A stretch of DNA of 64,000 nucleotides from Candidatus Poribacteria bacterium (GTDB lineage: Bacteria; Poribacteria; WGA-4E; WGA-3G): assembly GCA_965261125.1 (NCBI GenBank), contig CBDHCS010000003.1, forward strand, positions 460,801 through 524,800. Direction: 5' to 3'. Positions within the stretch are counted from its first letter, which is position 1. Each line of letters begins with the position of its first letter. The translations under genes and the position numbers were made by a program. This document shows, in pieces, positions 7,253 through 28,224 of the stretch. The notes under the pieces are model-generated. The model searched no databases. It saw only the letters and a list, made by a program, of their open reading frames with translations, and had not been told where the DNA came from.

Positions 7253-7303
7253 GTGAAAACCTCCAGCTTACGCCGCTCGCTGTTGCGGTTACTCTTAATT
7301 AAT

Positions 7304-9328
7304 TTAGGAATTTATAAAGGGTTTCACATCCCACAGCAGGATAGTACCATCAAAACTACCACTCGCCAAAAGCTTCCCGTTTGGTGAAAACGTCAGTATT
7401 TCAATATCTGTTGTATGTCCCCAGAAGGTGTGTATGTTTTCACCAGTAGCAACGTCCCACAATCGTATTGCCATTTTTTCTATTCCCTTTTGCCACCAAG
7501 TGCCAGATGCAAGGTAACGTCCACAAGGTGAAAAGGAAAGTGCAAAAGGTTTTAGACTGTCCTCGGGTTGTGAAATTGTGTGCAGTAGCGTCAATTCTTC
7601 AGCACACCACAAGAGAAGTTTGCCAAACATTCCACCAGCAATTACGCTGCCATCTGGAGAAAAAGCTAATGCCATAGTTGTAAATGGTTTTTCTAAGGGT
7701 AACTGGGCTATTTCTACATCTACCTCAACATCCCAAAGACGTACAGTTTTATCACTTGATCCACTCACGATCCTTCTTCCATCTGATGAAAATGCTAACG
7801 CCCAGACGTGATCTGTATGTCCTCTGAAATGTCTCGGTTTTTCATTGTGTTGAATATCCCAGAGATAGATTACCCCACCTTTACCACTAAAAGCAATGCA
7901 TTCTTCTGAAATTGCAAATGTATCATTTCCTAACTGCGTAGGAGGCGTGAATTCAGCGATCAGAATCCTGTCTGTTTTATTTATTTTATACACCTTGTAG
8001 ATGTTGGGGGTCCAGTTAACAGCGAGTATGTCCCCTCCGGGTAAAAAAGTAAAAGACTTGAAGATTTCATTAAATTCATTCTGAATTGATATTCTCTGTG
8101 TCTGATTGCTTTTTATATTCCACAACACGATATCTCTTCCCATAATGCCTTGCACCGCAAGTGCCTCTCCATCGGTAAATTGGACATTACGTGGAAAACA
8201 GAGCGGTTCACTAAGTGTTGAAAAGGTGTGTGTGTTTTCAGATTTCGTTCGCTTATCAGATAAGGTGTGGGCAATCACTAACTTCAGGCATTTAGAAAAC
8301 CATTTATAACCAATACTCTCTTTTTGTTGTTCATAAGTCTGTAATATTTTACGTTCTTCTACGTTCCATACTACAATAGTGCTACCGGTAAACACGGTCG
8401 CAAGAAGAGTCCCGTCAGGCAAATAAAAAGGTTGTCCATAGCCATCATAAGTTTTCTTGAGCACACCCTGTGTTAAATCCCTTATGTATAGTGTCCTACT
8501 TCGATCACTTGATGCCAAGAACTGACCACAAGGTGAAAATCTAATAGTCCTCACCAATTCCTTATGTTCCGTAAAGTGAGCGACGCGTTCACCTGTTACT
8601 ATATCCCACACTAAAATATCACTTGCATAGCGAACAGGTGTGGTATCAGGTATTTTGTGCAGATTCTCACACGCCAACAAGCGGCTGTCCGGGGAGAAAG
8701 CAAAATTCCTCCCTATAAACTTAGCCGTGATTGATCCTGCCATTGGGTTCCACAAATAAGTTTGACTTCCTATTGTGGCAGCAACGAGTTGCCCATCCGG
8801 AGAAAATTGGAGTTTGGAAATATGGTTTGTCTGCCTATCATTTGACTCATGCTCCATTTGTACGATGCATTCACCTGTATGAACATCTAATATTTCTACA
8901 TTACCATCACGATTTACGATGGCAATCCAACAGCTGTCTGGAGAAAATGTTAGATGTTTACAAATTGTATGTTTTAGCGTTTGTGTTATACACTCACCAT
9001 TCTGAATGTCCCGCACTTTAATGAAACCGTCCCAATTGGCAAAAGCAATCAGTTTACCATCAGGTGAAATATCCACGGTAGAAATCATTCCCCGTTCCGT
9101 TTCCCATAACGCAATAGGAGACATTGAAGAAATTTCATACCACCAGAGTCCCATACGTGTGCCTACAGCGAAATATGTATTATCAGGAGAAAGTGCTATC
9201 TCACTATTACCGCTATAGTCTTGAAATCCTTTTCCCAGACGAGCAAACGCACCTTTTGGTAATGCCCATGTTGTTCCTGTTAGGTCATCTGGGGTGAAAT
9301 TCAGTGGTGCAGGTTTTGGATTTTGCAT
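7304..9328 (-). CDS. WD40-repeat beta-propeller protein
   Basis: 674 aa with many FSPDG...LAS...W(D/N) WD repeats. The N-terminus MQNPKPAPLNF...TGTTWALPKGAFARLGKG is nearly identical to that of the downstream paralog. Confidence 0.85.
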   Translation of the reverse strand: MQNPKPAPLNFTPDDLTGTTWALPKGAFARLGKGFQDYSGNSEIALSPDNTYFAVGTRMGLWWYEISSMSPIALWETERGMISTVDISPDGKLIAFANWDGFIKVRDIQNGECITQTLKHTICKHLTFSPDSCWIAIVNRDGNVEILDVHTGECIVQMEHESNDRQTNHISKLQFSPDGQLVAATIGSQTYLWNPMAGSITAKFIGRNFAFSPDSRLLACENLHKIPDTTPVRYASDILVWDIVTGERVAHFTEHKELVRTIRFSPCGQFLASSDRSRTLYIRDLTQGVLKKTYDGYGQPFYLPDGTLLATVFTGSTIVVWNVEERKILQTYEQQKESIGYKWFSKCLKLVIAHTLSDKRTKSENTHTFSTLSEPLCFPRNVQFTDGEALAVQGIMGRDIVLWNIKSNQTQRISIQNEFNEIFKSFTFLPGGDILAVNWTPNIYKVYKINKTDRILIAEFTPPTQLGNDTFAISEECIAFSGKGGVIYLWDIQHNEKPRHFRGHTDHVWALAFSSDGRRIVSGSSDKTVRLWDVEVDVEIAQLPLEKPFTTMALAFSPDGSVIAGGMFGKLLLWCAEELTLLHTISQPEDSLKPFALSFSPCGRYLASGTWWQKGIEKMAIRLWDVATGENIHTFWGHTTDIEILTFSPNGKLLASGSFDGTILLWDVKPFINS

Positions 9329-9365
9329 AGCATTCGTTCTTTAACAGATTCAAAATCAATTTTTA

Positions 9366-11456
9366 TTAGTCTTGAGTAGGGATGAAGGGCTTTACATCCC
9401 ACAGTAGAATTGTACCATCATCCGCTCCACTTGCCAGAATTGTGCCGTCAGGAGAAAAGTCAAGTGACTGCACGTCTGTAGTATGTCCCCAGAAGGTCTT
9501 GATATTTTCACTTGTGGCAACCTCCCACAACCTGATTGCCATTTTCTCCATTCCCTGCTGCCACCAAGTCCCCGATACAAGATACTTGCCACACGGTGAA
9601 AAGGTGAGTGCATACGTCCGTCGGCTGTTTTCAGATTGTGGTATCGTACGTAACGTCGTTAGTTCCTCAGCACACCACAAGCGAATCTCGTCGTCCATTC
9701 CGCCGGCAATTATCTTACCACACGGTGAAAACGCTATCCCTTCAGTGCAGCGAGGCTCATCCAGAGGAAGTGGCGCAATTTGCTCACCTGACTCAACATC
9801 CCACAAGCGAATGGTGTCGTCGCGCGCCCCGCTCACTAACCGCTTGCCATCCAGTGAAAACGCCAGTGATGTAACGTAATCCGTATGCCCAGTGAGCAGT
9901 GTTGGCTTCCCTGGATCGTGGAAGTTCCATACATAAACCGTGCCTTCTCTACTCCCCGCTGCAAGCCGATCGCCAGTGGGAGCGAACACTTTGTGACGCA
10001 CCCACTGTGAAGGTTCCTTAGGTGCTGTGAACTCAGCGACAGGTTCGTCCGGATTACTGGCATCCCATACTTTGGTCTCATTGTGGAGACGGGTGCCCAG
10101 TATCCTTCCACAAGGCAAAACAGTGTAAGTATGAATATTTTTCCCCTTCATTAACGTTTCCTGTGGACACTTCTGGGCAACATCCCATAATTCAATACCT
10201 GGGTAATCGCGGGTACTTACGAGTGTTTGGTTATCCAACCAAGCCACCTTAGGATAGGGCCACGGGAAATGAGGTTCACAAAGCGTTGGGAATGTTTGGG
10301 TCTTGCCATCTGTCTCTTTGTTGGACAGCGCGTAGGCGACAGCCAACTGTGGACATCTGAAAAACCATATCGCACCAACGCTCCCCGTCAAGAGTTCAAT
10401 CGTTTGTAGTTTTTCACGGGGTTCTACACCGCAGATATCAATGGCTACTGCCGCTTTCTCATAGCGAAATGCGGCAGTCAGTAGCTTCCCCTCTGATGAG
10501 TAGAATGGAAGTCCCCAATCTGTTTCAGAGTCGGTATAAGCCTTCTTTTGTATACCTTTTGTGACATCCCACACGCGTAGACTTTTATCTCTACTACTCG
10601 ACACAAGAAATTCACCACACGGCGAAAAGGTTACAGTATTCACCCAATCACTATGCCCTATGAAGTGAGCAATGCGTTCCTTTGTTTCCACATCCCACAC
10701 CGAAACACAGCGATCAACACGCCCTTCATTGCTAAGAGAATCATCAGCAGATGCGCCTGCCAGCAGACGACTATCTGCTGAAAAGGCAAAATTTCTTCCT
10801 GCAAACTTGATAATTGCCTCACCCGTCTCTGGATGCCACACGTAAGTTTGCGTCCCTTCTGTGTCAGGATTCAGAACCTGTCCGTCGCGCGAAAGTTTAG
10901 GATTTCGTGCTGTAGCAGCGAGACAGCTACCATCTGGCGAAAATTCGAGTTGGGAAATATCATTTGATTGGAATTCGTGCGCGCCCCGATCCATCTGTGC
11001 AATACACTCACCGCTATGGATATCTAATACCTTCACGACCCCTTTCATCGCTGCAATCGCAATCCACTTGCCGTTCGACGAACAGGCAAGTCCACCAAAA
11101 GCGTCTTGACCTTCTATCTGTGTGATACATTCGCCGCTTTGAATATCCAGTCCCTTGATAATACCATCCGCAGTAGAGATGATAAGCCATTTGCCATCAG
11201 AGGAAAAATCGATGGAATTAACCATTCCCCTTTTCGTTTCCCACAATGAAATCGGAGACATTGAGGCTATGTCATACCACCAAAGCCCCATGAGGGTTCC
11301 AACAGCGAAAAACGTGCTATCTGGAGATAATTTAACATCTCCTTCATTCACATCACCTTTGCCAAATCGAGCAATCGCACCTTCTGGCAATGCCCAGGTT
11401 GTTCCTGTGGCATCACCTTGCACAACATTAAAGGGTGCAGGTTTTGGATTTTGCAT
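9366..11456 (-). CDS. WD40-repeat beta-propeller protein (tandem paralog)
   Basis: 696 aa of WD repeats. It shares the N-terminal MQNPKPAP...ARFGKG motif with 7304-9328. Confidence 0.85.
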   Translation of the reverse strand: MQNPKPAPFNVVQGDATGTTWALPEGAIARFGKGDVNEGDVKLSPDSTFFAVGTLMGLWWYDIASMSPISLWETKRGMVNSIDFSSDGKWLIISTADGIIKGLDIQSGECITQIEGQDAFGGLACSSNGKWIAIAAMKGVVKVLDIHSGECIAQMDRGAHEFQSNDISQLEFSPDGSCLAATARNPKLSRDGQVLNPDTEGTQTYVWHPETGEAIIKFAGRNFAFSADSRLLAGASADDSLSNEGRVDRCVSVWDVETKERIAHFIGHSDWVNTVTFSPCGEFLVSSSRDKSLRVWDVTKGIQKKAYTDSETDWGLPFYSSEGKLLTAAFRYEKAAVAIDICGVEPREKLQTIELLTGSVGAIWFFRCPQLAVAYALSNKETDGKTQTFPTLCEPHFPWPYPKVAWLDNQTLVSTRDYPGIELWDVAQKCPQETLMKGKNIHTYTVLPCGRILGTRLHNETKVWDASNPDEPVAEFTAPKEPSQWVRHKVFAPTGDRLAAGSREGTVYVWNFHDPGKPTLLTGHTDYVTSLAFSLDGKRLVSGARDDTIRLWDVESGEQIAPLPLDEPRCTEGIAFSPCGKIIAGGMDDEIRLWCAEELTTLRTIPQSENSRRTYALTFSPCGKYLVSGTWWQQGMEKMAIRLWEVATSENIKTFWGHTTDVQSLDFSPDGTILASGADDGTILLWDVKPFIPTQD

Positions 11457-15508: not shown

Positions 15509-17458
15509 CTACTGATTAAGAACTAAAGTAGTTAAATCCCACAAAAGAATTGTGCCATCGGCACTGCCACTCGCAAGCGTTTCCCCATCGGGTGAGTACG
15601 CAAGACTATTCACAACATCCGTATGTCCCATATAAGTATCCAGTAGTTTTCCTGTTTGCACGTTCCAAAAGTAAATTGCACCATTGTCTCCACAAGCGAT
15701 CAAACTACCATTTGGAGAAAATGCAACAGAAAATATTTTCTTTGCTTGTCCTTTAAGAGTTCCTAACAATTCGCCTGTCTGACTGTTCCACAAGCGGAGT
15801 GTCCCATCGTGACTTCCGCTGGCAAATATGCTGCCATCGGGTGAATATGCCACCGCATAAACACTTCCTGTGTGGTCAGCAAGGGTTTTCAGTGAATTCC
15901 CAGTTTGCACATCCCACAATCGGACTGTCTTGTCGCAGCTGCCTGTGGCGAGGCTGCCTCCATCTGGAGAAAACGCTACGGCGCAAACACTGTCTGTATG
16001 TCCAGTGAATGTCAACAGCAAATCGCCAATAAGATACAGTTCACCTCTGCGGACTTCCCATAAGCAGGTTGTGTTGTCATGGCTGCCAGTGGCAAGCATG
16101 CAACCGTCCGGAGAAAACGCGACTGAAGATATATTTTCTTTATGTCCAACGAAGGATCCAAGGAATCTTCCGTTTTGAGCATCCCATAATCGCGCTTTTT
16201 TTGTATCCTCTGCACTTGCGAGTATTTTACCGTCCGATGAATATGCGACTGCAAGTACATTTTGTTGTGGACGACGAAAAATTTCCCAGGAATATGTGAT
16301 AGTTGTTTGGATTTCACCGGCCTCTGAGTTTCGCATAAGAATTTCGGTCCCATAGCTACTCGCGAGTGTGTTGCCATTTGGAGAGTAAGCCACAGAATAA
16401 GTGCGTTGAGAAGGATGACGTGTTCCAACTGTTTTTTGCGGAGGACGTGTTCCTTCTGTTTTTTGGGTAGAAGAACAATGAAGGGTATGATCCGAAATCG
16501 TTTCTAAGATTTTGCCAGTGTTTACTTCCCAAAACCGAATCGTGCCAATCTCACTTGCACAAGCAATCGTTTCGCCATCGGGTGAAAATGCTACAGAAGA
16601 GGGCCAAGAATTTACATCTACCTCAAGTTCAAACCTTTTCAGCAATTGTCCAGTGCCAACATCCCAAAGACAGACATCATCACCATGTATTCCAGTAGCG
16701 AATGAGCGTCCATCAGGAGCAAATGTAATAGGTGAGAAATCACCCATCCAACTTTCGGCTTCACACGTTTTCAGTTTTTTACCTGTGTTAGCATCCCAAA
16801 AATTAATTTCTCCACAGCTATCTCGACTAATGAGCATGCTGCCATCAGGGCTGTACACAATATATTCTACCCAATCAGTCCCTTCAGTAAAGTGTTTTAG
16901 CAATTCACCTGTTTGTGCATCCCAAACCCAAATTCCACCTTTTCCACCAAAAGCTTCACTGCTGGCAATTGTATTTCCATCTGGCGAAAAAACTGCTGAA
17001 AAAACGCTCTCCGTATGCTCCTCAAGTTTTGCTAACTGTTGTCCCGTTTGTAGATTCCAGAGCCCAATCGTTTTGTCGTCACTTGCAGTGGCAAGCCTTT
17101 CACCATCCGGACTGAAGGCAACAGCGTTGACAGTCTCCGTATGCCCAATGAAAGTTGCTTTGTGTTCCCCTGTATTGGCATCCCACAAACGTGCAGTCTT
17201 ATCATCACTCGCGGTTGCAAACGTTCCCCCATCCGGACTAAATACTATTGAATTGACTGGACCTGTATGTCCCGTTATCAGTTCAAGGGGTTTGCATGTT
17301 TCCACATCGTAAATCCAGACTCCTATTGTGCTGGCAACGGCGAGCCGTGTGCCATCCGGAAAAAATTTTATTTCATTTATCCCTCCTTTGCCAATGCGTT
17401 TTTTGGCACCTGGGGGAAGTTTCCACTGTGTGTAGTGTTGCAGATTTTGCATGTTCAT
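15509..17458 (-). CDS. WD40-repeat beta-propeller protein
   Basis: 649 aa of WD repeats. The N-terminus has KLPPGAKKRIGKG. It is a paralog of 21428-23423. Confidence 0.85.
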   Translation of the reverse strand: MNMQNLQHYTQWKLPPGAKKRIGKGGINEIKFFPDGTRLAVASTIGVWIYDVETCKPLELITGHTGPVNSIVFSPDGGTFATASDDKTARLWDANTGEHKATFIGHTETVNAVAFSPDGERLATASDDKTIGLWNLQTGQQLAKLEEHTESVFSAVFSPDGNTIASSEAFGGKGGIWVWDAQTGELLKHFTEGTDWVEYIVYSPDGSMLISRDSCGEINFWDANTGKKLKTCEAESWMGDFSPITFAPDGRSFATGIHGDDVCLWDVGTGQLLKRFELEVDVNSWPSSVAFSPDGETIACASEIGTIRFWEVNTGKILETISDHTLHCSSTQKTEGTRPPQKTVGTRHPSQRTYSVAYSPNGNTLASSYGTEILMRNSEAGEIQTTITYSWEIFRRPQQNVLAVAYSSDGKILASAEDTKKARLWDAQNGRFLGSFVGHKENISSVAFSPDGCMLATGSHDNTTCLWEVRRGELYLIGDLLLTFTGHTDSVCAVAFSPDGGSLATGSCDKTVRLWDVQTGNSLKTLADHTGSVYAVAYSPDGSIFASGSHDGTLRLWNSQTGELLGTLKGQAKKIFSVAFSPNGSLIACGDNGAIYFWNVQTGKLLDTYMGHTDVVNSLAYSPDGETLASGSADGTILLWDLTTLVLNQ

Positions 17459-17504
17459 CTCCTCCCAATCTCTATTTTTGATGTGTAGTAAAACCTATAA
17501 TTAT

Positions 17505-17635
17505 TGGGACACTTCTGTAGCGCAAACTGTTAGTTGCGTCCCATCGGCACAAACTATAGTGAAGCTTAGAAATAAATAGACACTTTCAACCGACTGCTGG
17601 CGAGGTTTCCTAACCTCGCTGGTGCAGAAGTGTCC
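17505..17635. repeat. inverted-repeat-bounded element (GGGACACTTCTG ... CAGAAGTGTCC) containing the tcct-loop hairpin
   Basis: The two terminal 11-12-mers are reverse complements. A related left end occurs at ~62826. Confidence 0.5.
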
Positions 17636-17695
17636 AATTAATTCTAAAATTCACTGTAAATGAATATTAAATAAATATTTCGGGTACTTTCTTTA

Positions 17696-17750
17696 GTCCC
17701 GTGAATCAACGCCAAATACGCGTTTGGTATTTGGCGTTGATTCACGGGAC
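17696..17750. repeat. perfect 23-bp-stem hairpin (GTCCCGTGAATCAACGCCAAATA-cgcgtttgg-TATTTGGCGTTGATTCACGGGAC)
   Basis: Exact reverse complementarity was checked base by base. Related AATGC-CAAA...TTTGGCATT hairpins occur at ~20928-20951 and ~28321-28350. Confidence 0.8.
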
Positions 17751-17841
17751 TAATTAGGACAAACACAATAACCATGCGTATTGATAAGAGTTCATAATAA
17801 TGTAGACGTTTCTTAAGTTGACACATAAGGGTTCCGTTTCT

Positions 17842-17980
17842 GCACAACCTAAATGAAGATTAATTTATTAATTCGGTAATTTCCCATATCTACACAAGTC
17901 ATGTGCAAGCCTCTGCTGGCGAGGTTTCCTAACCTCGCCAAATTACCGATTTATTTTCTTAAACTTCATACAGGTTGTGC
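17842..17980. repeat. MITE-like element, copy 1 (~139 bp; ~40-bp imperfect terminal inverted repeats GCACAACCTAAATGAAGATTAATTTATTAATTCGGTAATTT; central GCGAGGTTtcctAACCTCGC hairpin)
   Basis: The left end and the reverse complement of the right end align. A second copy lies at 62872-63068. Confidence 0.7.
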
Positions 17981-18025
17981 TACAGAAATGAAATGTCTAA
18001 GTAATTATATGCTTTACTATAATCT

Positions 18026-20599
18026 CTACTTCGTTAAATCCCATAAAATTACTGTGCTGTCTCTACAGCAACTCGCGAGCGTTTTGCCATTTGGAGAAAA
18101 GACTATAGAATTAATACCACTTATATGCCCCTTTAAAGTTTTCAGAAGTTTTCCTGTAGCAACATCCCACAAAAGTATTTCATCCTGAACACCTACACTT
18201 GCCAGCGTGTTGCCATCTGGTGAAAGGACAGCATAAACAATATAATAATCTTTTGCTTTTAAGTGTGTGATAGATTTTTGCTCTGCAGTTGTAACATCCC
18301 AAAACTTGATTTTCCCGGCGTCGTCTGCGGTTACAAGGATTGTCCCATCAGGGGAAAAATCTATAGAATTAACATCAACATCTGCTTTCATTTTTATAGT
18401 ATTCAACAGTTCACCCGTTGCAACATCCCGAAAACGAATTGTTTCATCGTCTTCGATACTGGCTAAAATCTCTCCATTGGGTGAAAATAAAACTGTGCTA
18501 ACATGCGGTGCATGCTTTTTAAAGGTTTTTAAGTGTTTTCCCGTGTGGGCATTCCACAATCGGATTGTCCCGTCCCAACTTCCACTTGCAAGGGTTTGTC
18601 CATCTGGACTAAAGGCTACCGAGGATACGCCATCTGTATGTCCTTTGAGAACTCCTCTTTTTTTCCATTCGCTAACATTCCATAGTACCGTTTTATCCAT
18701 AGTTCCACAAGCGAGTGTCTCCCCATCTGAAGAATACGCGATTGCCCTTATTGACCCTTTCACAGAAAGTGTTTTTGTGGAAAGTGTTTTTATGAGTTTT
18801 TGCGTTTCTAAATCCCAAATACGTACGATATTGTCTAAACTTGCTAATGTCCTCCCATCAGGAGAGTATGCTACAGAACTGACAACATCAGAATATCCGG
18901 TGATTGTCTTTTCAAGTTCACCAGTATTCACATCCCAGAAATATATTTCATCACAGGTTTTAACGGCAAGTGTCTGTCCATCTGGTGAAAATAGAAAACC
19001 AGTAACCCACTCTGCATGTCCAGGCATTTTGAGATCATGTAATAACTCTCCTGTGTCAGCATCAAATAGTAGGACTGTTGCTTCTCCATAATCCTCACTA
19101 CATGCAAATATTCTTCCATCCGGAGAATACTGCACAACCTCAAGCTTTCTATCCTGTTTTATTGTTTTCAGTTGCTCACCGGTATGGGGGTTCCACAGTC
19201 GGATATTTTCATCGGAATTAACACTCACAAGTGTTCTCCCATCTTTTGAAAAGTCAATAGAAAAAGCATTTTCTGTCCAAGTTGTGAGTATGCGCAAAAA
19301 TTCGCCAGTCCGTGCATTCCATAGACAGACATTGTTATCTCCTCCTTGACTGACAAGGACCTCTCCATCTGGAGAATACTTCAGAAAATCGACAATATTT
19401 GCGTGTGCTGCGAAGGTTAACTGTAGTTCAGCAGTGGTAACATCCCATAAACGGATTACTTCATCATTACCGCCACTTGCAAGTGTGCTACCATCTGGAT
19501 TGAATGCTAACGTCTTGATTGGAGCTGTATGTCCTATGAGAGTTGATTTTAATTCACCTGTGTCACCATCCCATAAACAGATGCCGTCTTCACCAGGACC
19601 TGCCAGTGTTTTCCCATCAGGACTGAAAATAGGGAAAATAGGAGAATCTATCCCCTCTGTAAGTACAGCTTTAGATTCACCAGTGACTGCATCCCATAAA
19701 CGAATAGTATCGTCTCCGCGGTATCCTTTACTTAAACTTGCCAGTGTCTTCCCATCAGGACTGAAAACAACGCTACGGGCATAATACGTATGTCCAGTTA
19801 CATAACCAGTATGTCCAGTTAACAGATTGATTTCCTCACCGGTTGTGACATCTATCAACCAGATACCGATTGTACTTGCTAAAGCAAGGCGGGTGCCATC
19901 TGGCGAATAAGCAAAATCAAATACATAGCCTTTCCCGAACCGTGTTATTGCGTCTTTCGGTAGATAGTTTTCAATATAATTCTCAAGATTGTGCGATCGA
20001 ACGGATTCTAACAACATAATATCTCCTTGTTGCGGTTCAACGCCAAACTCCTTACGCAGGAGTGAGCGAACTTCTCTTAATCTTGTTTTGACTGTGCCTA
20101 TAGCTAAGTTAAGTTCGTGGGCAATGTCTTTGACACTCCATGATTCAAGGTAGTACAGGACCGCGATGGGACGTACCCGATGTGGAAGGTGATGCACCGC
20201 CTCTCTGGCATCTGCGCGTAATTGTGCTGCCTGATAACGTGTAGGGGCATCTTGGTCAATATGTTCGGCTAAATCCGCATCGCTTTGTGGGATTTCGTCT
20301 TGTGAACGGCGATGAGAAGAATAATACCTATTGCACGCGTTATATGCAATGCGTCGCAGCCACGCACCAAAACTATCTATTTTCCGGAGACCCCCTATGT
20401 TTTCCCACACTGCCATCCAGATGTCAGTCCGAATTTCTTCCGCATCCCGGTGTTGCCTTGATTTTGAGACAACGATACGCCAAATACGTGGTGTCCAACG
20501 GGACATAAGTTCCGCAAATGCCGCTTCATCGCGGTTTTGTACAAGACATATCAATTCATCGTCTTCAAGGTCACTGAGATCTATCAAATCATTGTTCAT
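18026..20599 (-). CDS. ECF-type sigma-70 factor fused to C-terminal WD40 propeller (soluble)
   Basis: The N-terminus has sigma-70 region 2 (FAELMSRWTPRIWRIV...) and a region 4 helix-turn-helix (DIAHELNLAIGTVKTRLREVRSLL). It is followed by YLPKDAITRFGKG plus more than 12 WD repeats. No TM segment is present. Confidence 0.85.
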   Translation of the reverse strand: MNNDLIDLSDLEDDELICLVQNRDEAAFAELMSRWTPRIWRIVVSKSRQHRDAEEIRTDIWMAVWENIGGLRKIDSFGAWLRRIAYNACNRYYSSHRRSQDEIPQSDADLAEHIDQDAPTRYQAAQLRADAREAVHHLPHRVRPIAVLYYLESWSVKDIAHELNLAIGTVKTRLREVRSLLRKEFGVEPQQGDIMLLESVRSHNLENYIENYLPKDAITRFGKGYVFDFAYSPDGTRLALASTIGIWLIDVTTGEEINLLTGHTGYVTGHTYYARSVVFSPDGKTLASLSKGYRGDDTIRLWDAVTGESKAVLTEGIDSPIFPIFSPDGKTLAGPGEDGICLWDGDTGELKSTLIGHTAPIKTLAFNPDGSTLASGGNDEVIRLWDVTTAELQLTFAAHANIVDFLKYSPDGEVLVSQGGDNNVCLWNARTGEFLRILTTWTENAFSIDFSKDGRTLVSVNSDENIRLWNPHTGEQLKTIKQDRKLEVVQYSPDGRIFACSEDYGEATVLLFDADTGELLHDLKMPGHAEWVTGFLFSPDGQTLAVKTCDEIYFWDVNTGELEKTITGYSDVVSSVAYSPDGRTLASLDNIVRIWDLETQKLIKTLSTKTLSVKGSIRAIAYSSDGETLACGTMDKTVLWNVSEWKKRGVLKGHTDGVSSVAFSPDGQTLASGSWDGTIRLWNAHTGKHLKTFKKHAPHVSTVLFSPNGEILASIEDDETIRFRDVATGELLNTIKMKADVDVNSIDFSPDGTILVTADDAGKIKFWDVTTAEQKSITHLKAKDYYIVYAVLSPDGNTLASVGVQDEILLWDVATGKLLKTLKGHISGINSIVFSPNGKTLASCCRDSTVILWDLTK

Positions 20600-21048
20600 A
20601 AACAGATTTCTAATTCGGTTTTAATATAAAGAGGCAGGTTTTCAAGGAGAGGGTTTAAAAAAATGCAAAAATTATATTTTTCGGAAGAATTACCAGTCTT
20701 AAAGGGCATCTTATGAATAGGATCTATTGGGTTGTCTCTGTCCAACTTATATTAACAGGACTTACGCAAATTCAAGTATCCCTGTTTAGAATTTTGTCCT
20801 TTCACGGATATTAACCCTGATTTTTTGTCCTTTTCAAGGTTTTACCCCCCTTTATCCCCCCGCAAGCGGGGGGAATGCGTGAGTCCTGATTAAATTACCG
20901 GGATTTATCTTTTTCCGGACGGTGAATCAATGCCAAATGCGCTTTTGGCATTTAGGCGGGTGCGGTTTCCTAACCAATTCAGAATACCGAACGCGTATTC
21001 TGACATACCCATAGGCATCAACTTAAGGAATTTTGATTTTGAGTCCAT

Positions 21049-21277
21049 CTCTTCAGTCCCGTAGGGACGATATGTTTATAGAATTATGTTCAACTACCTC
21101 TTCAGTCCCGTAGGGACGATATGTTTATGGACCTGTTATTGGCATCTACATATCGTTCCTACGGAACTCAAGAGGGGTGGTGACAGCGTTTTTCTATAAA
21201 CATATCGTCCCTACGGGACTAAGAGAATAGGGATAACACGTGCTACTATAAACATATCATCCCTACGGGACTAAAAG
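21049..21277. repeat. array of five ~30-bp repeats (CTCTTCAGTCCCGTAGGGACGATATGTTTAT) with 17-22-bp spacers: two forward copies, then three reverse-complement copies
   Basis: Copies at 21049-21080, 21098-21128, 21148-21174 (divergent), 21196-21225 and 21248-21277. Each contains a GTCCC-gta-GGGAC mini-palindrome. Confidence 0.8.
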
Positions 21278-21427
21278 TCGGGACACTCTCAATCCTAATG
21301 CCTATTGAACCGGGTTTATAGAACAAGAAATATTGTCTTAAATTGACATTTATGGCAATTTGTCTATTAGAAATGGTACTACAAACTGAATAGGGATAAT
21401 GGAAATGGAGATATCAGCACAAATTAG

Positions 21428-23423
21428 TTATTGATCACGGACCAATTTTGTGAGATCCCACAACAGAATTGTGCCATCAGAACTCACGCTTGCAAGCGTT
21501 TCACCATCTGGAGAAAACACAACAGCGTTGACGCTCTGTGTATGTCCGATAAGGGTTTGAAGACGTTCCCTCGTTTGTGCACTCCAGAGGTGGACAGCGT
21601 TGTCGTTTTCAGTCCCACTTGCGAGTGTTTCCCCATTTGGAGAATATGCCAAAGAAGTTACTTGTCCTGCTTCTTCAATTGGCGGAAGCATCAAATCGCC
21701 TGTATTAGCGTTCCATAATCGGATAGTGCCATCCGCACTTCCACTGGCAAGTGTTTTGCTATCTGGGGAATACACTACATCAGTAACAGACTCTTCATGT
21801 CCTGTGAGTGCCCTAAGATGCGTGCGGGTGTCTATGTACCAAAGTTGAATTGTTTTGTCATGGCTGCCACTTGCAAGTGAAGTGCCATCAGGTGAAAATG
21901 CCACTGCAGTGACTCTGTCCGTATGTTCGGTAAAGGTTGCCAAACGTTCACCAACCGGATATAATTCACCTGAACGAATTTCCCATAAACAGACCATATT
22001 GTCTTCACTACCGTCTTTCTTGACAGCATTTCTGGGGCCTCTTCCTCCCACCTCCGCTGGCAAGCGTCCTGCCATCGGGCGAAAACGCTACGGAAGAAAC
22101 CTGATACTTATATCCGTCAGTAACCCTGTCCTTATGCCCCTTAAAACTGCCGAGGAACCGTCCGCTCTGCACGTCCCACAAACGCGCTTTCATAGAAGTA
22201 CCACCAGTTGCAAGTAGCTTTGCATCGGAAGAATATGCAATTGAATGGACATCACAACTCGGTTCTTTGATCGTTTTTAGATGTTCACCCGTCTGTGGAT
22301 TCCACCATTGGATTTTGGACTCACCCCCACAAGCAAGTGTGTTACCATCAACGGAATATGCCACAGAATAAATTTTTGAGGAAGCATGTCCGGCTATCGT
22401 TTTTATTAAATCACCAGTAGCAGCATCCCAGAACCCTATCGTGCCATCGTCACTTCCACTTGCAATTGTCTTTTCATCAGGGGAATATGTCACAGAATTG
22501 ACCGTGTCAGCATGCCCCATGCTTTTCAAAAGTTTTGCCATGCTAACATCCCAAATATCAACTCTGTCCCAATAACTACCTGAAATGAGAGTGCGTCCAT
22601 CAGATGAAAACTCCATAGACTCAAAATTACCTATCCACTCTGTGTGGCTTTTTAGGAGTTTGGCTGTTTCTACATCCCAAAATTGAAGTGGACCTTCACC
22701 ACCGCAAGCCAAAATCTTGCAATCATGTGAAACTGAGACAGCATTGAAATTCTCTTCAATTAGAACATCTTTTAAATGATCACCGGTTTTTGCATCCCAG
22801 TACTCGATATAGAATTCGTATTTGTCCCAATTTCCGATTGTGAGGATCATCGTTCCATCAGGAGAATATGTCATCGCCAACACTGGAGAAGCATCAGACT
22901 TTATAGTTTTCAGAAGCTCTCCGGTTTGCGCGTCCCAAATATGTGTATTCCACAGATCACAGTGACTGGCAAGTGTTTCCCCAGTAGGGCTAAACGCAAT
23001 TAAATTAATACCGTCTTTACGGCTACTGTTGTCTTTCTGTCCAATACAGGTCGCTTTATGTTTACCTGTACTTGTGTCCCACAATCGAATAGTGTAATCT
23101 TCACTACCCGTGGCTAAAGTTTTACCATCAGGACTGAAGGCTATTGACTTAACCGGGGCTGTGTGTCCTGTAAGCAGGTCAAGTACTTCTCCTGTTTGAA
23201 CATCATAAATCCAGATACCGATAGAAGTCGCGACTGCCAGCCGTTTGCCATCAGGAAAATATTTTATCTGATGTATTCTGCCTTTTCCGAGTCGTGCTTT
23301 GACACCTGCAGGTAAGCCTAAGCGGGTATGGTTTTGAGAGAAAGCGGTTGCAGACAAAAAAATTAACAGATAGAATGTAGAGATTAGCGGTCCAAAAGTC
23401 AGAACGATGTTTAATATTTTCAT
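21428..23423 (-). pseudogene. WD40-repeat protein with N-terminal signal/TM, disrupted by a 43-nt frameshifting insertion (~22010-22052)
   Basis: Two overlapping ORFs (22008-23477 and 21428-22075) rejoin into an in-frame LASGSEDNMVCLW repeat if 43 nt are removed. An AAGGAG ribosome-binding site precedes ATG 23423 (MKILNIV...). Confidence 0.65.
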
Positions 23424-23477
23424 ACAATTTAAACTCCTTTGAAGATTGTGTCTGTTGTCTATATTATGCAATGGCAC

Positions 23478-26219
23478 TTACTGCGGAACATCCCATAGTA
23501 GAACTGTGCTGTCCCATCCGCCAGTGGCAAGGGTGCGTCCGTCTGGTGAATATCTGATAAAATAGACACCTTCTGACCTATTACTTCTTTTATGTCCGAT
23601 GGCAAAAGTCTGAATAACTTTACAAGTCTCTGCATCACAAAACGATAATTTACCGTCCGAATCAATGCCAACAATTGTACGTCCATCTGGCGAATATGTC
23701 CGAAAGTATGTTTTTTCTTCTGATGTAATGGTTTTCAGCGGTTCATCACTATTCCTATGCCAAAACTGGATAATGCGACTTCCGAAGTCAATGCTTACAA
23801 ACTTTTCCCAGTACGGTGAAAGTACAATTGTGTCCGCCTTAATGTCCTTTACGGTTCCACCGGTAGCGATGTCCCAAAAACGTGTTCCCGAATCACTTGT
23901 ACTGACAAGCATCTTTCCATCAGGTGAAAACGCTAAAGTTCTGACAAAATCGCTGTGCCAATCAAGTATTTTTAAGGTTTCACCTGTAGACACTTCCCAT
24001 AAGTGAATAGCACCGTAAGAGTCTCCACTTGCAAGTATCTGTCCATCAGGACTAAACGCTACCGATTCAGCACCATCCTTGTTGTGTCCTGTGAAAACGC
24101 GTCCGTGTTCACCTGTTTTAGTATTCAAAAGAAAAACCGTATCATATTCGTCCGGTCCACCCCCGCATGCAAGCGTTACGCCATCTGGAGCATAAGCGAT
24201 ACAAGTGATACTAATGGAACCCGGAGAGTAGATCTTTTTTAGTTTGCCAGTGTGCGGATCCCATAATCGCAGACTTGGACCGGTGCTTACAGTAGCAAGT
24301 GTATTTCCATCTGGTGAATATGCCATATCACGAAACATTTCTGCGTAGCCAGTCAATGTTCGTATCGGATCAGTGGTAGCCACATCCCAAAACCGAATTG
24401 TACCGTCACTGCCTGCATTTACCAATGTCCTACCATCCGAGGAGAACACTATATGATGGGTTGTTTCTGGTGGACTTTTAATAGTTTTTAGACGTTCGCC
24501 TGTAGCTACGTCCCAAAACTGAATCATATCATCTTTGTAGTTGTTGCTGACAAGTGTTTTTCCATCGGGGCTAAACATTACTGAATTAACGCCACCGGAA
24601 TCTGTTGTAGCAGTTAAGGTTGTCTTAAGCTGTCCGGTATGATATTCCCAGAATCGAATTATCCCATCCTCTCCGGCACTTGCTAAAGTTTTGCCATCAG
24701 GTGAATATGCGATGGAATAAACATCTCCCTTATACCCAGTAATTGAGCGAAGGAATTCTCCAGTGTGTGCATCCCACAGATGAATCATTTCATCCATGCC
24801 GTGGCTGGCAAGAATTTCACCATCTGGCGAATACATCACTTCGGAGACACTACCTGCATGTCCAGCAAAGACAAGAAGTTGTTCACCTGTAGCCACATCC
24901 CACAAACGAATTGTTTCATCTTCACTCCCACTTGCCAGTGTTTTCCCATCAGGATTAAACACTACCGAACTAATACCTTCAGTATGTCCAGTGAGTGTCG
25001 TTCTTAGCTGTCCGGTTTGTGTATCCCACAATAAAATTGTGTTGTCGCTGCCATCGCTTGCTAAAAGTCGGTTATCAGGACTAAAGGCGACTGTTGAAGC
25101 ACTTTCCATGTGTTCTGTGAGTAGGTTAAGTTCTTTACTGGTGTGTGCATCATAAATCCATATACCGATGGTGCCTGCTGCAGCAAGCATTGTACCATCT
25201 GGGGAATACGTCATATCAAATATGTGTCCTTTTCCGAGGCGCGCTTTCGCACCTTCAGGCAATTTCCACTTTGTAGAATCTTGAACAAGGTTATTTTGCA
25301 TAGATGATTTTCCTTTTGCTAATCCGTCATTACTGTTTTTGTCGGAGACAGCATCGCTTCCAACCCGATTTTGCACATCAGGTTTTGATTTGATATTAGG
25401 GATTATCGGTGTCTCAACGATTTCAATTGTGGCTTCAGATTGTGCCTCAAAACTATATGGCAACTGAAACTGAGTGAGGTATTGATTACTCGCGCCTATC
25501 AGTAAAATAACTAATATTAGAGATGAACCTAAAGCACCCAGCGGCAACAACGGTTTACCCACTGAAGGGGATGTCTGTTTTACCTTGGCGATGTCCTGCA
25601 TGATATTTGCAGTTAGATCGGGAGATAACGGAACAGTGCCGAGGGTTTCTTGAATCATGGAAACTTCTTCTCTTAGACGTTTCCGTGCGCGGCTCAACCG
25701 ACTTTTAACCGTGTTCGGTGAAACACCTAAAAATTTGCTAATCGCTTCGCAAGTCATCTCTCCGAGGTAGTGGAGTATTACGACCGTGCGTTCACTTTCT
25801 GGCAGCTTTTCCAAAAGTTTTTGCACGACTTCACGGCGGCGCTCAACTTCCGCCTCTTCACGCTGTTCCGAAATATAACACGTGTATGCTGTTTCTTCTA
25901 ATGTTTCTTGACTCGTCGCTTCAAGGGATTGCACCGGCTGTTTTTTCTTTCGCAGCCACGCGATGCATTGTCTATTAGCGATCACATACAACCATCCGGT
26001 AAATTGGTTCGAGTCTTTCAGAGTTGGCAGTTTTTTGTATACCTGTAGGAAGATGTCTTGTGTAATTTCTTCAGCAATATGGAAATCGCCTATTTTCCGC
26101 CATACAAGCGCGTGAACACTTTTTTGGTATTTTTGGACTAAGGCACTAAAAGCCGCCTCGTCACCGGATAAGATTTTATGAATCAATTCAGCATCGCTTT
26201 TCTTCATTAGGGACCTCAT
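23478..26219 (-). CDS. ECF-type sigma-70 factor fused via TM helix to WD40 propeller
   Basis: The protein has sigma-70 region 2, a region 4 (VSPNTVKSRLSRARKRL) and a TM segment (PLLPLGALGSSLILVILLIGA). These are followed by KLPEGAKARLGKG and WD repeats. This fused architecture was previously reported for Planctomycetes ECF groups. Confidence 0.85.
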   Translation of the reverse strand: MRSLMKKSDAELIHKILSGDEAAFSALVQKYQKSVHALVWRKIGDFHIAEEITQDIFLQVYKKLPTLKDSNQFTGWLYVIANRQCIAWLRKKKQPVQSLEATSQETLEETAYTCYISEQREEAEVERRREVVQKLLEKLPESERTVVILHYLGEMTCEAISKFLGVSPNTVKSRLSRARKRLREEVSMIQETLGTVPLSPDLTANIMQDIAKVKQTSPSVGKPLLPLGALGSSLILVILLIGASNQYLTQFQLPYSFEAQSEATIEIVETPIIPNIKSKPDVQNRVGSDAVSDKNSNDGLAKGKSSMQNNLVQDSTKWKLPEGAKARLGKGHIFDMTYSPDGTMLAAAGTIGIWIYDAHTSKELNLLTEHMESASTVAFSPDNRLLASDGSDNTILLWDTQTGQLRTTLTGHTEGISSVVFNPDGKTLASGSEDETIRLWDVATGEQLLVFAGHAGSVSEVMYSPDGEILASHGMDEMIHLWDAHTGEFLRSITGYKGDVYSIAYSPDGKTLASAGEDGIIRFWEYHTGQLKTTLTATTDSGGVNSVMFSPDGKTLVSNNYKDDMIQFWDVATGERLKTIKSPPETTHHIVFSSDGRTLVNAGSDGTIRFWDVATTDPIRTLTGYAEMFRDMAYSPDGNTLATVSTGPSLRLWDPHTGKLKKIYSPGSISITCIAYAPDGVTLACGGGPDEYDTVFLLNTKTGEHGRVFTGHNKDGAESVAFSPDGQILASGDSYGAIHLWEVSTGETLKILDWHSDFVRTLAFSPDGKMLVSTSDSGTRFWDIATGGTVKDIKADTIVLSPYWEKFVSIDFGSRIIQFWHRNSDEPLKTITSEEKTYFRTYSPDGRTIVGIDSDGKLSFCDAETCKVIQTFAIGHKRSNRSEGVYFIRYSPDGRTLATGGWDSTVLLWDVPQ

Positions 26220-26514
26220 TATACCATGTGCTTACAGTAATTAATGACGCGATTTAAAAGTTGAAAGGTTGCATGATTGTCATAATTGAAACAAATTTGA
26301 ATTCTTTATCTGAAATATTCTATTTTCACTCCGGTCCGGTTAGGAAACCGAACCAGCTGAATCATGCAGAATGCCGGCCGCGCATGAGGCGTTGATTCGT
26401 AGTGTAAGGAAAAAGCAGAAGAGATAACTGCACGATTTTGTGCAAGCGGCGTTGAAAAAGAAGGGGTATGGAACAGCAGTCTGCTGTCCCATAACATTTT
26501 TTGGACTCTGTATT

Positions 26515-28224
26515 TTAAATCACTCGTTTTACATAGACATAATACGCGCCAAGCGTTAATTCGCCTGTTTTATCAGAGAACTGGGTGTGGAGACGTGTTT
26601 GCCCTGCTTTGAGGTTAAACGTAAAGGTTACGCCAACTGCATCAGGATCAATAGATTGTGCCTCTGACTGATCGCCAATACGGATTTGTGCGGTTTTCAA
26701 GTCTAATGCGCGGCCACCGTTGTAAAGGTCAATTTTCTCACCGGGAATCCCCTCTGTAATAGCTCTGTTTTCCTCACGCGGCCAGCGGCGTAATTCAAAA
26801 CTATACTCCCCATCTTCAGGAATCTCAATTGCCCAATATCCGTTGCATTCCATCCCGTTCCGTATAGACCCTTGATTCCAAGCATTTCCACCGCCGTGCC
26901 AATCATGTGTTGTTATACATGCAAGTTGCTCGTTTTGTGTGCCAACGACAATCGGACACTCTTCATCAAACCGTTCTGAGACTAACGTCCACCATGTCTC
27001 ATAATGCTCGCGTAGTTCTGCAACTACTTCGGGATGGTCACCAACGATGTCTTCTCGTTGTTCGGGGTCTGCTTGGATGTCATAAAGTTCTGTGCCATTG
27101 ATAAGTCGCCATCTTTGTGACATTGTGGCACTCTGTCTCCACTTAACAGGGTTTTCAATCCGTTGTGAATCGGTAACAATCACGCGATCTTCCCATTCCA
27201 CCGAGTCATCTTGCAATAACGGTGCAATGCTTTTACCATGGAAACGAGAGGAATCGGACACCTCTAAATCGCAGAGGTCAATTAACGTAGGCAGCAGGTC
27301 GATGTTTGCCGTGAGTTCGTCAACCTCTTTCTTTTGTGAAAAGCCACCTTCTGGCCAATGCATAAAGAGCGGTACACGATGTCCGCCTTCATACGGCGAG
27401 CCTTTTTTGCCGCGCATCCCAGCGTTGTATCCTGACTTGACAAACTGCTGTCCATCCAAATCGCAACCATTAGCAGACCCGTTATCTGTCATGAAGATTA
27501 GGATAGTGTTTTCCTCAAGCGCCAAGACTTTGAGATGATGTCGAAGTCGTGCCATGTTGTCGTCAATGTTGGTAATCATTCCATAAAAACAAGCACGCGA
27601 TTCTGGTTCCCCTTTCCTTCGGTATACCTCGCTATAGGCATCAGGAACACGGAACGGACCGTGCGGCGCATTGGTTGGAATATAGCAGAAAAATGGACGG
27701 TTTTGGTTTCGTTCAATAAACTTCATCCCTTCTTGAAACCAAACATCGGTACAATAACCTTCAAATGGTTGTTCAGACCCGTTGCTAAAGTAGGTATCGT
27801 CAAAATAGTCGTTTCCCCAATAGTCGGGCGTTTGACTGATACCGCCGCCGCCATGATAAAGTGCTTCTTCAAAGCCACGGTCGTGCGGACGGAACGGATA
27901 GTTATCGCCAAGATGCCATTTGCCGAACATGCCGGTTTTATAGCCGTTGCGTCTGAAGATATCTGCCATCGTGACCTCATCGCTTCGCAGAAGTGATCTG
28001 CCTCCGATGGTATGCCACACGCCTGTTGAGTTGCAATAGCGTCCGGTCATGATGCCTGCGCGCGTCGGTGAACAAGTGGGGCCGACATGTAGGTTCCGCA
28101 GTTGCACGCTTTCTCCTGCAAGCGCGTCTAAATTCGGGGTGTTGATAACCGAATTTCCGGTGCATCCTAAATCACCGTAGCCTTGGTCGTCGGTGATAAC
28201 GAAAACTAAGTTAGGTTGTGACAT
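26515..28224 (-). CDS. arylsulfatase-family sulfatase
   Basis: 569 aa with the CSPTR formylglycine motif and GKWHLG. No obvious N-terminal signal peptide. Confidence 0.85.
   Translation of the reverse strand: MSQPNLVFVITDDQGYGDLGCTGNSVINTPNLDALAGESVQLRNLHVGPTCSPTRAGIMTGRYCNSTGVWHTIGGRSLLRSDEVTMADIFRRNGYKTGMFGKWHLGDNYPFRPHDRGFEEALYHGGGGISQTPDYWGNDYFDDTYFSNGSEQPFEGYCTDVWFQEGMKFIERNQNRPFFCYIPTNAPHGPFRVPDAYSEVYRRKGEPESRACFYGMITNIDDNMARLRHHLKVLALEENTILIFMTDNGSANGCDLDGQQFVKSGYNAGMRGKKGSPYEGGHRVPLFMHWPEGGFSQKKEVDELTANIDLLPTLIDLCDLEVSDSSRFHGKSIAPLLQDDSVEWEDRVIVTDSQRIENPVKWRQSATMSQRWRLINGTELYDIQADPEQREDIVGDHPEVVAELREHYETWWTLVSERFDEECPIVVGTQNEQLACITTHDWHGGGNAWNQGSIRNGMECNGYWAIEIPEDGEYSFELRRWPREENRAITEGIPGEKIDLYNGGRALDLKTAQIRIGDQSEAQSIDPDAVGVTFTFNLKAGQTRLHTQFSDKTGELTLGAYYVYVKRVI

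Follow-up and report, generated by a model that had tools for sequence, protein, structure and literature searches.

A membrane-tethered ECF sigma factor with a WD40 propeller ectodomain and a neighboring free propeller paralog in Candidatus Poribacteria

Introduction

Extracytoplasmic function (ECF) sigma factors of group ECF57 (formerly ECF01-Gob) are planctomycetal proteins with C-terminal WD40-like extensions and many young paralogs, at 5.3 copies per planctomycetal genome (PMC8999054, PMC7826278, PMC8567305). Their extensions are thought to act through protein interaction, and their sigma2 and sigma4 domains each hold one conserved cysteine (PMC8999054); ECF57 proteins have also been recovered in membrane fractions. 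Here we describe a stretch of 64,000 nucleotides from a Candidatus Poribacteria bacterium (assembly GCA_965261125.1, contig CBDHCS010000003.1, positions 460,801 to 524,800; hereafter the window, in whose own numbering positions are given) with two ECF sigma::WD40 fusion genes, A and C, each followed downstream by a gene for a free WD40 paralog, B and D, respectively. This arrangement had been proposed in an initial annotation made from the sequence, and sigma profiles and WD40 repeats confirmed it.

As in ECF57, the ECF sigma2-sigma4 core of these fusions is extended at the C terminus by a long run of WD40 repeats, young paralogs are many, and a separate anti-sigma factor is absent. Unlike ECF57, the family to which gene A belongs is found in Candidatus Poribacteria and not in Planctomycetes, and it is ECF57-like by domain build and published descriptions. 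In the literature that we searched, a transmembrane (TM)/juxtamembrane module with exchangeable ectodomains, a head peptide, a TGCAAC-N17-GCGTC promoter, and a localization-matched free propeller were not found described for ECF57. The abundance of WD40 proteins in Poribacteria has been reported under the term “eukaryote-like repeat proteins,” with sigma factors unmentioned (PMC3909097), and the same search found no prior description of sigma-WD40 fusions in Poribacteria, which is not proof of absence.

Sigma factors fused to TM regions and released by proteolysis are represented by IutY of Pseudomonas putida (ECF243) and SCO4117 (ECF52), and IutY is cleaved by Prc and RseP (PMC8999054). Like these proteins, gene A encodes a cytoplasmic ECF sigma factor, a single TM helix, and an extracytoplasmic domain in one polypeptide. 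IutY and SCO4117, however, carry an anti-sigma domain (FecR-like or zinc-finger) between sigma and the TM region, whereas gene A has approximately 30 residues there and no Pfam anti-sigma match, and the ectodomains of IutY and SCO4117 are not propellers and have no paired free paralog. By analogy, activation of a tethered sigma factor such as that of gene A may be modeled best on IutY and ECF52.

In the RseA/RseB system of the sigma-E pathway, a periplasmic protein binds the periplasmic domain of the sensor and gates site-1 cleavage. Like RseB, B is a predicted soluble periplasmic protein encoded beside a membrane component and could control access to a juxtamembrane cleavage site. The comparison is an analogy only, since RseB is not a paralog of the RseA periplasmic domain, unlike B relative to A, and has no homology to the system described here. 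The locus also differs from a canonical ECF sigma/anti-sigma operon in that the genes immediately after the sigma genes, B and D, encode pure propellers. An exported B cannot reach the sigma domain, from which it would be separated by the membrane, and the suggestion in the initial annotation that the free propeller may serve as an anti-sigma factor therefore fails, in its classical form, for the first module (A-B).

We tentatively favor the explanation that gene A encodes a transmembrane sigma sensor of the one-component kind and that the free propeller co-transcribed with it modulates signaling in the same compartment, and we regard this as quite possible, if somewhat short of probable. We arrived at it from the domain anatomy, promoter, and phylogeny of these genes and from the co-inheritance, purifying selection, and matched compartments of the pair.

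Results

Two ECF sigma factors fused to tandem WD40 propellers

For comparison with the window, we used fetched loci (labeled from L001 onward) and database proteins (labeled P plus a number). All genes of the set lie on the minus strand and include two additional free propeller genes, E and F (Table 1). The sigma domains of gene A matched Sigma70_r2 (E of 1.9e-13) and Sigma70_r4_2 (E of 1.3e-17), with PF04542 and PF08281 above their cut-offs, and TIGR02937 sigma70-ECF at 105.5 bits against a cut-off of 42.9; those of gene C matched TIGR02937 (74.4 bits), PF04542 (36 bits), and PF08281 (33.5 bits). Of the sigma domains, both proteins contain only sigma2 and sigma4, with scores above the threshold of the ECF (group 4) family, and PF00400 (WD40) matched 10 stretches in each. 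Gene A has a single hydrophobic segment at approximately residues 220 to 245, flanked by lysines on the sigma side and by acidic residues after the helix, and its WD40 repeats run from approximately residue 317 to the end, placing the propeller at 25274 to 23481. A Pfam scan of residues 1 to 330 of gene A found no anti-sigma domain (FecR, zf-HC2, or RskA) in the stretch that separates sigma4 from the TM helix and returned only the sigma domains and HTH_23. Gene C is without a hydrophobic segment or TM helix, and its WD40 repeats begin at approximately residue 210. Translation of gene A probably starts at the ATG at 26207 (MKKSDAELI), which is preceded by GAGG as a ribosome-binding site, and its ortholog in the syntenic relative L001 was called as 909 residues.

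Table 1. Coordinates of the genes, domains, and promoter elements in the window
Feature	Position	Strand	Description	Size or basis
Gene A	23478..26219	-	ECF sigma, TM helix, juxtamembrane segment, linker, and 14-blade WD40 tandem propeller	913 residues
Gene A sigma core	25638..26207	-	sigma2-sigma4 core of the A-type clade	family hidden Markov model (HMM), 344 bits; Pfam and NCBIfam matches
Gene A family-specific segment	25350..25634	-	post-sigma linker, TM helix (approximately 25482-25556), and conserved juxtamembrane stretch QFQLPYSFEAQSEATIEIVETPIIPNIKSKPDV	TM/juxtamembrane (tmjm) HMM, 146 bits
Gene A head	25119..25274	-	head motif (TKWKLPEGAKARLGKG...) and blade 1	motif and head HMM
Gene A promoter	26246..26273	-	ECF-type; TGCAAC (-35, 26268-26273), 17-nt spacer, GCGTC (-10, 26246-26250)	only match in the 64-kb window
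Gene B	21428..23477	-	predicted exported free tandem propeller; signal peptide or anchor 23334-23423, head 23172-23327	begins 0-54 nt past the stop of A
Gene C	18026..20599	-	soluble ECF sigma (C-type clade, 20048-20566) joined directly to a 14-15 blade propeller (head 19820-19972)	857 residues
Gene C upstream element	20620..20659	-	conserved upstream of C-type sigma genes; TTTAAACC, 23 nt, TATATTAAA	once in the window versus 0.00 expected
Gene D	15509..17458	-	predicted cytoplasmic free tandem propeller, head 17276-17431, no signal peptide	WD40, N terminus, AlphaFold
Gene E	9366..11456	-	predicted cytoplasmic free propeller, head 11244-11402	head motif and WD40
Gene F	7304..9328	-	predicted cytoplasmic free propeller, paralog of E (47%), head 9107-9274	head motif and WD40

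A family promoter precedes gene A and is probably used by gene B

An AAC-containing -35 element combined with a CGTC -10 element is a hallmark of ECF promoters, and such a promoter sits approximately 40 nt ahead of the likely start of gene A. The upstream regions of 122 family genes have a strong strand-specific motif in common, which resolves to TGCA[AC]C-N17-GCGTC with a spacing of 17 nt in 60 cases and 16 nt in 6. In its strict form the motif occurs 76 times in 1.55 Mb of sequence from such loci, 67 of them directly upstream of A-type sigma genes and mostly at 30 to 60 nt from the gene; a relaxed form is found at 86 of the 122 family genes. The presence of its own conserved ECF-type promoter indicates, from sequence, that gene A is likely autoregulated, as ECF sigma factors usually are (PMC7826278).

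The initial annotation had suggested a check for ECF -35 and -10 elements upstream of each gene. These were found before gene A, and the family motif does not occur upstream of B, C, D, E, or F in the window; gene C is preceded by the different element listed in Table 1. This element, which is common to the C-type genes of L001, L002, L005, and L007, is possibly the promoter of gene C. A sigma-70-type promoter scan of the window was uninformative (27 sites versus 25.2 expected). Because the gap between A and B is only 0 to 54 nt and has no terminator-like site inside, the two genes likely form an operon and are co-transcribed, and the corresponding fusion and free genes of L016 abut.

A few features of the A-B junction suggest that this coupling may extend to translation. 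An in-frame peptide ahead of the ATG of gene B (window 23424 to 23477; ..IDNRHNLQRSLNC-MKILN) is kept in L003 and L004, and a GTG at 23477 abuts the stop codon of gene A. Translation of gene B may thus begin upstream of its ATG and be coupled to that of A, and the protein may have an extended N-region with positive charge, which would make its N terminus a signal anchor instead of a cleaved signal peptide.

The placement of the family promoter also raises the possibility that the free propeller is an output of the sensor, such that the sensed target induces a secreted copy that coats, sequesters, or agglutinates that target with no feedback on signaling. With the promoter almost solely ahead of fusion genes (67 of 76 matches), the visible co-transcribed “target” is the downstream gene, for which secreted head-propellers are the commonest single class and other secreted proteins make up most of the rest; in L002, moreover, a copy of the gene A promoter lies upstream of a free cytoplasmic propeller gene. 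We nevertheless consider this explanation unlikely, as it leaves the cytoplasmic C-D pair, which has no external target to act on, unexplained, and the roles of effector and competitor are in any case mutually compatible.

The L002 sequence itself (4780 to 4820) is a near-copy of the gene A promoter and leader (ATTATGACGGTCATGCAACCTTACAACCTCAAAATCGCGTCAC...GTGAGGTCTATA) approximately 200 nt upstream of the free propeller gene at 4957 to 7032, after which comes a C-type sigma-propeller fusion (7095 to 9803). This order hints that the membrane-tethered A-type sigma factor may drive the cytoplasmic module of that genome in a possible cascade.

The propellers are specifically related and carry a head motif

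Gene B begins with a signal-peptide-like segment (MKILNIVLTFGPLISTFYLLIFLSATAFSQ), and gene D, which has in-frame stops directly upstream, lacks such a segment. All six propellers of the window, including the E and F pair, have one copy of the head motif LPx[GD][AV]x[AKT]RxGKG immediately ahead of blade 1, as the initial annotation had recognized. A head HMM scored 73 to 96 bits at these six sites and below 20 bits on all other blades in the window. Furthermore, the six propellers align colinearly from end to end over approximately 600 to 680 residues, with identities of 40 to 41% between A and C, 45% between B and D, 47% between E and F, and 35 to 36% between A or C and B or D. Due to the separation by the head HMM and the end-to-end colinear alignment, the likeness among these propellers is specific and exceeds the generic WD40 resemblance that, according to that annotation, would have refuted its proposal. 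Gene E is closest to the propeller of a C-type sigma fusion in L002 (52%).

An AlphaFold model of gene D (predicted local distance difference test score [pLDDT] of 81.9) contained two 7-bladed propellers, at residues 27 to 321 and 353 to 641, and its 54 strands assigned by DSSP are consistent with 14 blades in two halves. The head peptide (residues 1 to 24) had a pLDDT below 50 and was not confidently placed. The top match in PDB by Foldseek was 2YMU (E of 3e-51; 38% identity), the 14-blade WD40 tandem propeller of Nostoc punctiforme, which has the same fold. Unlike 2YMU, the propellers of the window bear an N-terminal head peptide and are linked to sigma factors or export signals.

A two-gene propeller unit was duplicated, and the second copy became cytoplasmic

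A propeller phylogeny, which the initial annotation had proposed as a test of pairing, grouped A with C and B with D. In this neighbor-joining tree, ((A,C),(B,D)), the fused propellers (the A group with the C/L016 group) and the free propellers (the B group with the D/L016 group) form two sister pairs. The closest matches of the A propeller are its orthologs in L002 (63%) and L004 (57%); next come the L016 fused propeller (43%) and C (40%). For B, the orthologs in L002 (67%) and L004 (56%) are again the closest, and the L016 secreted free propeller (48%) and D (45%) come next. This pairing implies that the two-gene unit, and not single genes, was duplicated and that the unit is older than the species splits.

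The closest non-orthologous relative of the C propeller is the TM-anchored fused propeller of L016 (56%), and that of D is the secreted free propeller adjoining the same L016 fusion (56%). Since both nearest relatives belong to an exported pair, both members of the second module (C-D) lost their export signals and became cytoplasmic. The initial annotation had described one partner as membrane anchored and one as soluble. Although gene A does have a TM helix and gene C has none, the contrast is better drawn between modules, with the first wholly exported in its propellers and the second wholly cytoplasmic.

Duplication explains the propeller units only. The A-type sigma domains form a tight clade with a median pairwise identity of 63%, while the sigma domain of C scored only 66 bits on the A-type HMM, versus 344 for A, and is 65 to 69% identical to C-type members of L002, L005, and L007, a clade in which most members bear quite different C-terminal domains. 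A plain duplication of the whole A-B module into C-D is ruled out for the sigma part by this clade identity and HMM score, and the duplicated fusion-plus-free pair of the initial annotation thus holds for the propellers and not for the sigma domains. Because the sigma domains of A and C fall in different ECF clades, gene C is a recombinant of a C-type sigma core with a propeller of the exported family, minus the TM and juxtamembrane part.

Fusion genes with an A-type core and no TM helix were observed elsewhere: in L005 (12905), L007 (12981), and L033 (7107), an A-type sigma core (HMM score of approximately 290) is joined straight to a head-propeller with the TM/juxtamembrane part deleted. This is another, independent way in which soluble sigma-propeller fusions have formed.

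The relatives nearest to A (L001, L002, L003, L004, and L006) retain the A-B pair, and the identities given above for L002 and L004 indicate that A and B diverged in parallel. The order A-B-C-D is also found in the independent assembly L001. Ratios of nonsynonymous to synonymous substitution rates (dN/dS) between the window and L001 were 0.17 for A, 0.30 for C, 0.21 for D, and, in the case of B, 0.08 before and 0.33 after a frameshift that divides the gene, compared to 0.02 to 0.09 for neighboring housekeeping genes. Genes A to D are therefore under purifying selection, constrained yet evolving faster than their neighbors.

Gene A belongs to a large Poribacteria family of tethered sigma factors

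A search with residues 1 to 367 of gene A returned 3156 proteins. The best 120 of these were 49 to 80% identical to the query, with 91 covering at least 90% of it, from the sigma domain through the TM helix, juxtamembrane segment, and linker to the first blade, and the rest covering 49 to 89%, and every named match was from Poribacteria. Scanning of species-representative genomes, one per species, yielded at least 565 copies of the family, and all 79 fetched family loci come from metagenome-assembled genomes (MAGs) of Poribacteria. The initial annotation had noted that ECF::WD40 fusions are described for Planctomycetes; a planctomycete origin of the locus is ruled out, as exact-sequence matches, the named homologs, and the 79 loci all point to Candidatus Poribacteria.

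When the 145 residues of A that lie between sigma4 and the head were searched with phmmer against 1.84 billion representatives, 190 clusters at 50% identity matched at E of 1e-10 or lower. The TM/juxtamembrane segment sits at approximately residues 183 to 335 of proteins of 600 to 1380 residues, nearly always straight after the sigma domain. Family members have in common the sigma domain, a KPxxP motif, the TM helix, and a juxtamembrane stretch, QYLxRFQxPYSxDAQSExT[IV]E[IL][IV]DAPI...KPDV, and differ in their ectodomains, which are mostly head-type WD40 propellers, in some cases Sortilin/BNR-like, and in others unassigned. The A-type proteins thus form a large, Poribacteria-restricted family in which sigma, TM helix, and a conserved juxtamembrane segment are followed by a variable ectodomain. 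The family genes of the fetched loci are mostly full length (900 to 1150 residues), and many family members in databases are frameshift truncated, such as P0026, P0054, and P0079.

Cys85 in sigma2 is invariant in the A-type alignment, and a sigma4 cysteine (GEMTC) is present in 8 of 10 sequences; gene C has the sigma2 cysteine (YNAC) and no sigma4 cysteine.

Free propellers are not a constant neighbor but match the compartment of the nearest fusion

The initial annotation had expected consistent adjacency of free and fused genes in related genomes. Adjacency holds for the close relatives that keep A-B and does not extend across the family, with no A-B pair downstream of more distant relatives such as L005 and L007 to L015. 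For 103 scorable family genes, we recorded the next gene on the same strand, and free head-propellers accounted for 17 cases (approximately 17%) and further family sigma genes for 26, while 71 were of other kinds, including frameshift continuations and various secreted proteins, so that tandem fusion arrays are at least as common as pairs of a fusion gene with a free propeller gene. In L078, L068, and L047, a free propeller is 58 to 64% identical to the ectodomain next door, and at the start of some free genes (L041 and L078), leftovers of the sigma-TM linker now serve as an export signal. This similarity and these leftovers indicate that free copies have repeatedly been generated from neighboring fusion genes.

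One gene of this kind, at 8749 in L007, has the family promoter followed by an open reading frame (ORF) in which the first approximately 15 sigma residues (MKKSDTELNHKILS) run into WD40 repeats, and it is an internal-deletion derivative of a fusion gene.

We also compared the predicted location of free propellers with that of neighboring fusions, using 25 free propellers that have a scorable N terminus and a fusion gene within 4.5 kb. A signal peptide was present in all 22 free propellers nearest a TM fusion and in none of the 3 nearest a soluble fusion (Fisher p=4e-4, a descriptive value only, as the events are non-independent and phylogeny is uncorrected).

These counts bear on whether adjacency is merely a by-product of a fast-expanding paralog family undergoing tandem duplication, domain loss, and recombination, with the free propellers independent of the sigma factors and acting, for example, as secreted “eukaryote-like” proteins that bind the sponge host. 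The fused or free state switched at least 21 times on a tree of 133 propellers, up to 5 tandem fusion genes occur within 21 kb, and free genes lie upstream as often as downstream at some loci (L007, L026, L053, and L072); free genes upstream of fusions have no family promoter. Together with the low frequency of adjacent free propellers, the visibly truncated fusions among the “free” genes (L041, L078, and L007 8749), and the known abundance of WD40 proteins in Poribacteria (PMC3909097), these features are what a by-product would predict. Such an origin would not account for an A-B pair kept with parallel divergence down to approximately 56% identity, for the joint compartment switch of both partners of the second module, or for the match of compartments in all 25 cases, and it is also opposed by the purifying selection on both A and B and by the tight coupling of B to A (0 to 54 nt, with abutting fusion and free genes in L016). 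We find it somewhat unlikely. The cognate partner relationship proposed in the initial annotation accordingly has the tree, the co-inheritance of A and B, selection, and compartments on its side, and has against it that adjacency is not family-wide.

Intergenic repeats, flanking genes, and relatives of the gene C sigma domain

The intergenic regions of the locus are rich in repeats. Between B and C (21049 to 21277) are five repeats of approximately 30 nt with the palindromic core AGTCCCGTAGGGACGATATGTTTATAGAA, approximately 50 nt apart, with three in one orientation and two in the opposite orientation. The repeat also occurs in intergenic clusters of nine other loci (L001, L004, L019, L022, L025, L026, L034, L058, and L080) and looks like a dispersed element of the repetitive extragenic palindromic/bacterial interspersed mosaic element (REP/BIME) type. 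The region between C and D (17459 to 18025) contains GGCGAGGTTAGGAAACCTCGCCAGCAG twice, with related copies upstream of A (approximately 26300 to 26500) and in L003, and a 60-nt perfect palindrome (TTAGTCCCGTGAATCAACGCCAAATACC...GGTATTTGGCGTTGATTCACGGGACTAA). Repeat insertions thus part C from D, whereas the related genes of L016 abut. Flanking gene A, the region at 26515 to 28224 and its neighbors encode a sulfatase, two class I/II aminotransferases, a xylose-isomerase-like TIM barrel, a cupin, and an M20 peptidase and are syntenic with L001, with dN/dS values (0.02 to 0.09) well below those of the propeller genes.

The C-type sigma clade consists mostly of Poribacteria proteins of approximately 400 residues in which the ECF core is fused to a Tubulin/FtsZ GTPase domain (approximately 100 of the top 120 clusters). 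In P0162, PF00091 matched at residues 206 to 365 with an E of 5.5e-40 over positions 1 to 189 of its 190-position profile, and P0164, P0188, and others are alike. A sigma::FtsZ gene in L081 (4001 to 5200) comes after four DUF5694 genes and is preceded by a close variant of the gene C upstream element; in the variant upstream of this same-clade sigma::FtsZ gene, TAGGTTAAA replaces TATATTAAA. In the literature searched, we came across no account of an ECF sigma::FtsZ-like fusion.

Discussion

Taken as a signaling pathway, the locus might work from ligand sensing through sigma release as follows. Gene A encodes a single-pass TM ECF sigma factor with its sigma2-sigma4 core in the cytoplasm and its stalk and 14-blade propeller outside, where the propeller would be the sensor; the gene has its own TGCAAC-N17-GCGTC promoter and is probably co-transcribed with its secreted paralog B. 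Binding of a ligand or protein at the propeller would alter the state of the tether, perhaps by regulated proteolysis at the juxtamembrane segment and TM helix on the precedent of IutY and ECF52, and the altered tether would free or activate the sigma domain. A release step common to all family members would then be served by the conserved juxtamembrane segment together with the proline-rich stretch (KPxxP) that leads into the TM helix, and hints toward proteolytic activation are limited to these two features.

The role of the free propeller in this model is that of a partner in the compartment of the sensor. B may act there as a soluble competitor or a co-receptor, with the ligand of the sensor, a related one, or the ectodomain of A as its target, and would give feedback on signaling because it would be induced from the same promoter as the sensor. 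The C-D module is a cytoplasmic derivative of the two-gene unit in which the propeller sits on another, TM-less sigma core and the free partner has lost its signal peptide, and the same relationship, between propellers or between propeller and ligand, would be played out in the cytoplasm. Such a relationship would be in line with the protein-interaction model proposed for the WD40 extensions of ECF57.

Several observations weigh against a tethered sensor with a modulating partner. Sigma4 and the TM helix of gene A are only approximately 30 residues apart, with no anti-sigma domain between them, and an AlphaFold model of residues 1 to 367 built from a 10-sequence alignment was too poor to interpret (pLDDT of 43). 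The gap between fusion and free genes reaches 200 to 900 nt in several orthologous loci, so co-transcription is not universal, and the gap between C and D is 567 nt, full of palindromic repeats, with neither promoter motif upstream of D. The small fraction of family genes followed by a free propeller (17 of 103) belongs here as well, as does the fact that the cytoplasmic move of the second module in essence happened once in evolution, or at most twice if L002 is counted. Finally, gene B, which had been annotated as a free WD40 gene at 21428 to 23423, does encode a free WD40 propeller, but not in a single ORF: it is split into two (22008 to 23477 and 21428 to 22075) by a +1 frameshift near 22037.

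This frameshift raises the question of whether the locus is decaying into pseudogenes or is an assembly artifact in a repeat-rich MAG, for which the frameshift-truncated homologs in databases (P0026, P0054, and P0079) and the REP-like repeats filling the intergenic regions could also be cited. The extra base reads GGCCCC in the window versus GACCC in the syntenic L001, and an intact relative of B, P0010 (662 residues, at least 90% identity), equals the one-base-repaired gene B exactly. A programmed frameshift was considered as well and is ruled out, since the L001 ortholog and P0010 are one base shorter and read through. Because dN/dS past the frameshift is 0.33 and not about 1, B does not look like an old pseudogene; its extra base more probably reflects a recent lesion, very young in age, or an error of assembly. 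With dN/dS between 0.08 and 0.33 across A to D, the same four-gene order in the independent assembly L001, and mostly full-length family genes in the fetched loci, we consider decay or artifact of the locus as a whole highly improbable.

To our knowledge, no branch of bacterial signal transduction is less understood than the ECF sigma factors that carry fused sensory extensions, and we know of no WD40-type member that has been studied experimentally. The locus provides a testable system, with a defined promoter, a modular tether common to different ectodomains, and natural paired soluble paralogs, and the joint change of compartment by C and D constitutes a natural experiment.

A broader interpretation, which we offer as speculative and think doubtful, is that Poribacteria possess a sigma-based “receptor repertoire” of many tethered ECF sigma factors per genome, in which a near-identical DNA-binding core and one promoter are combined with fast-diversifying ectodomains and with recurrent soluble decoy or co-receptor copies, and from which at least one pair moved to the cytoplasm. 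If this is true, any activated member would feed the same output and all paralogs, and the soluble copies would correspond in bacteria to the soluble decoy receptors of eukaryotes. The many “eukaryote-like” WD40 proteins of these sponge symbionts would then be, in large part, sensory hardware and not host-manipulation effectors. More modestly, part of the WD40 “eukaryote-like” abundance in sponge symbionts may consist of the ectodomains and spin-offs of a signaling family, and, if so, the way in which symbiont-host interaction genes are counted and interpreted would change.

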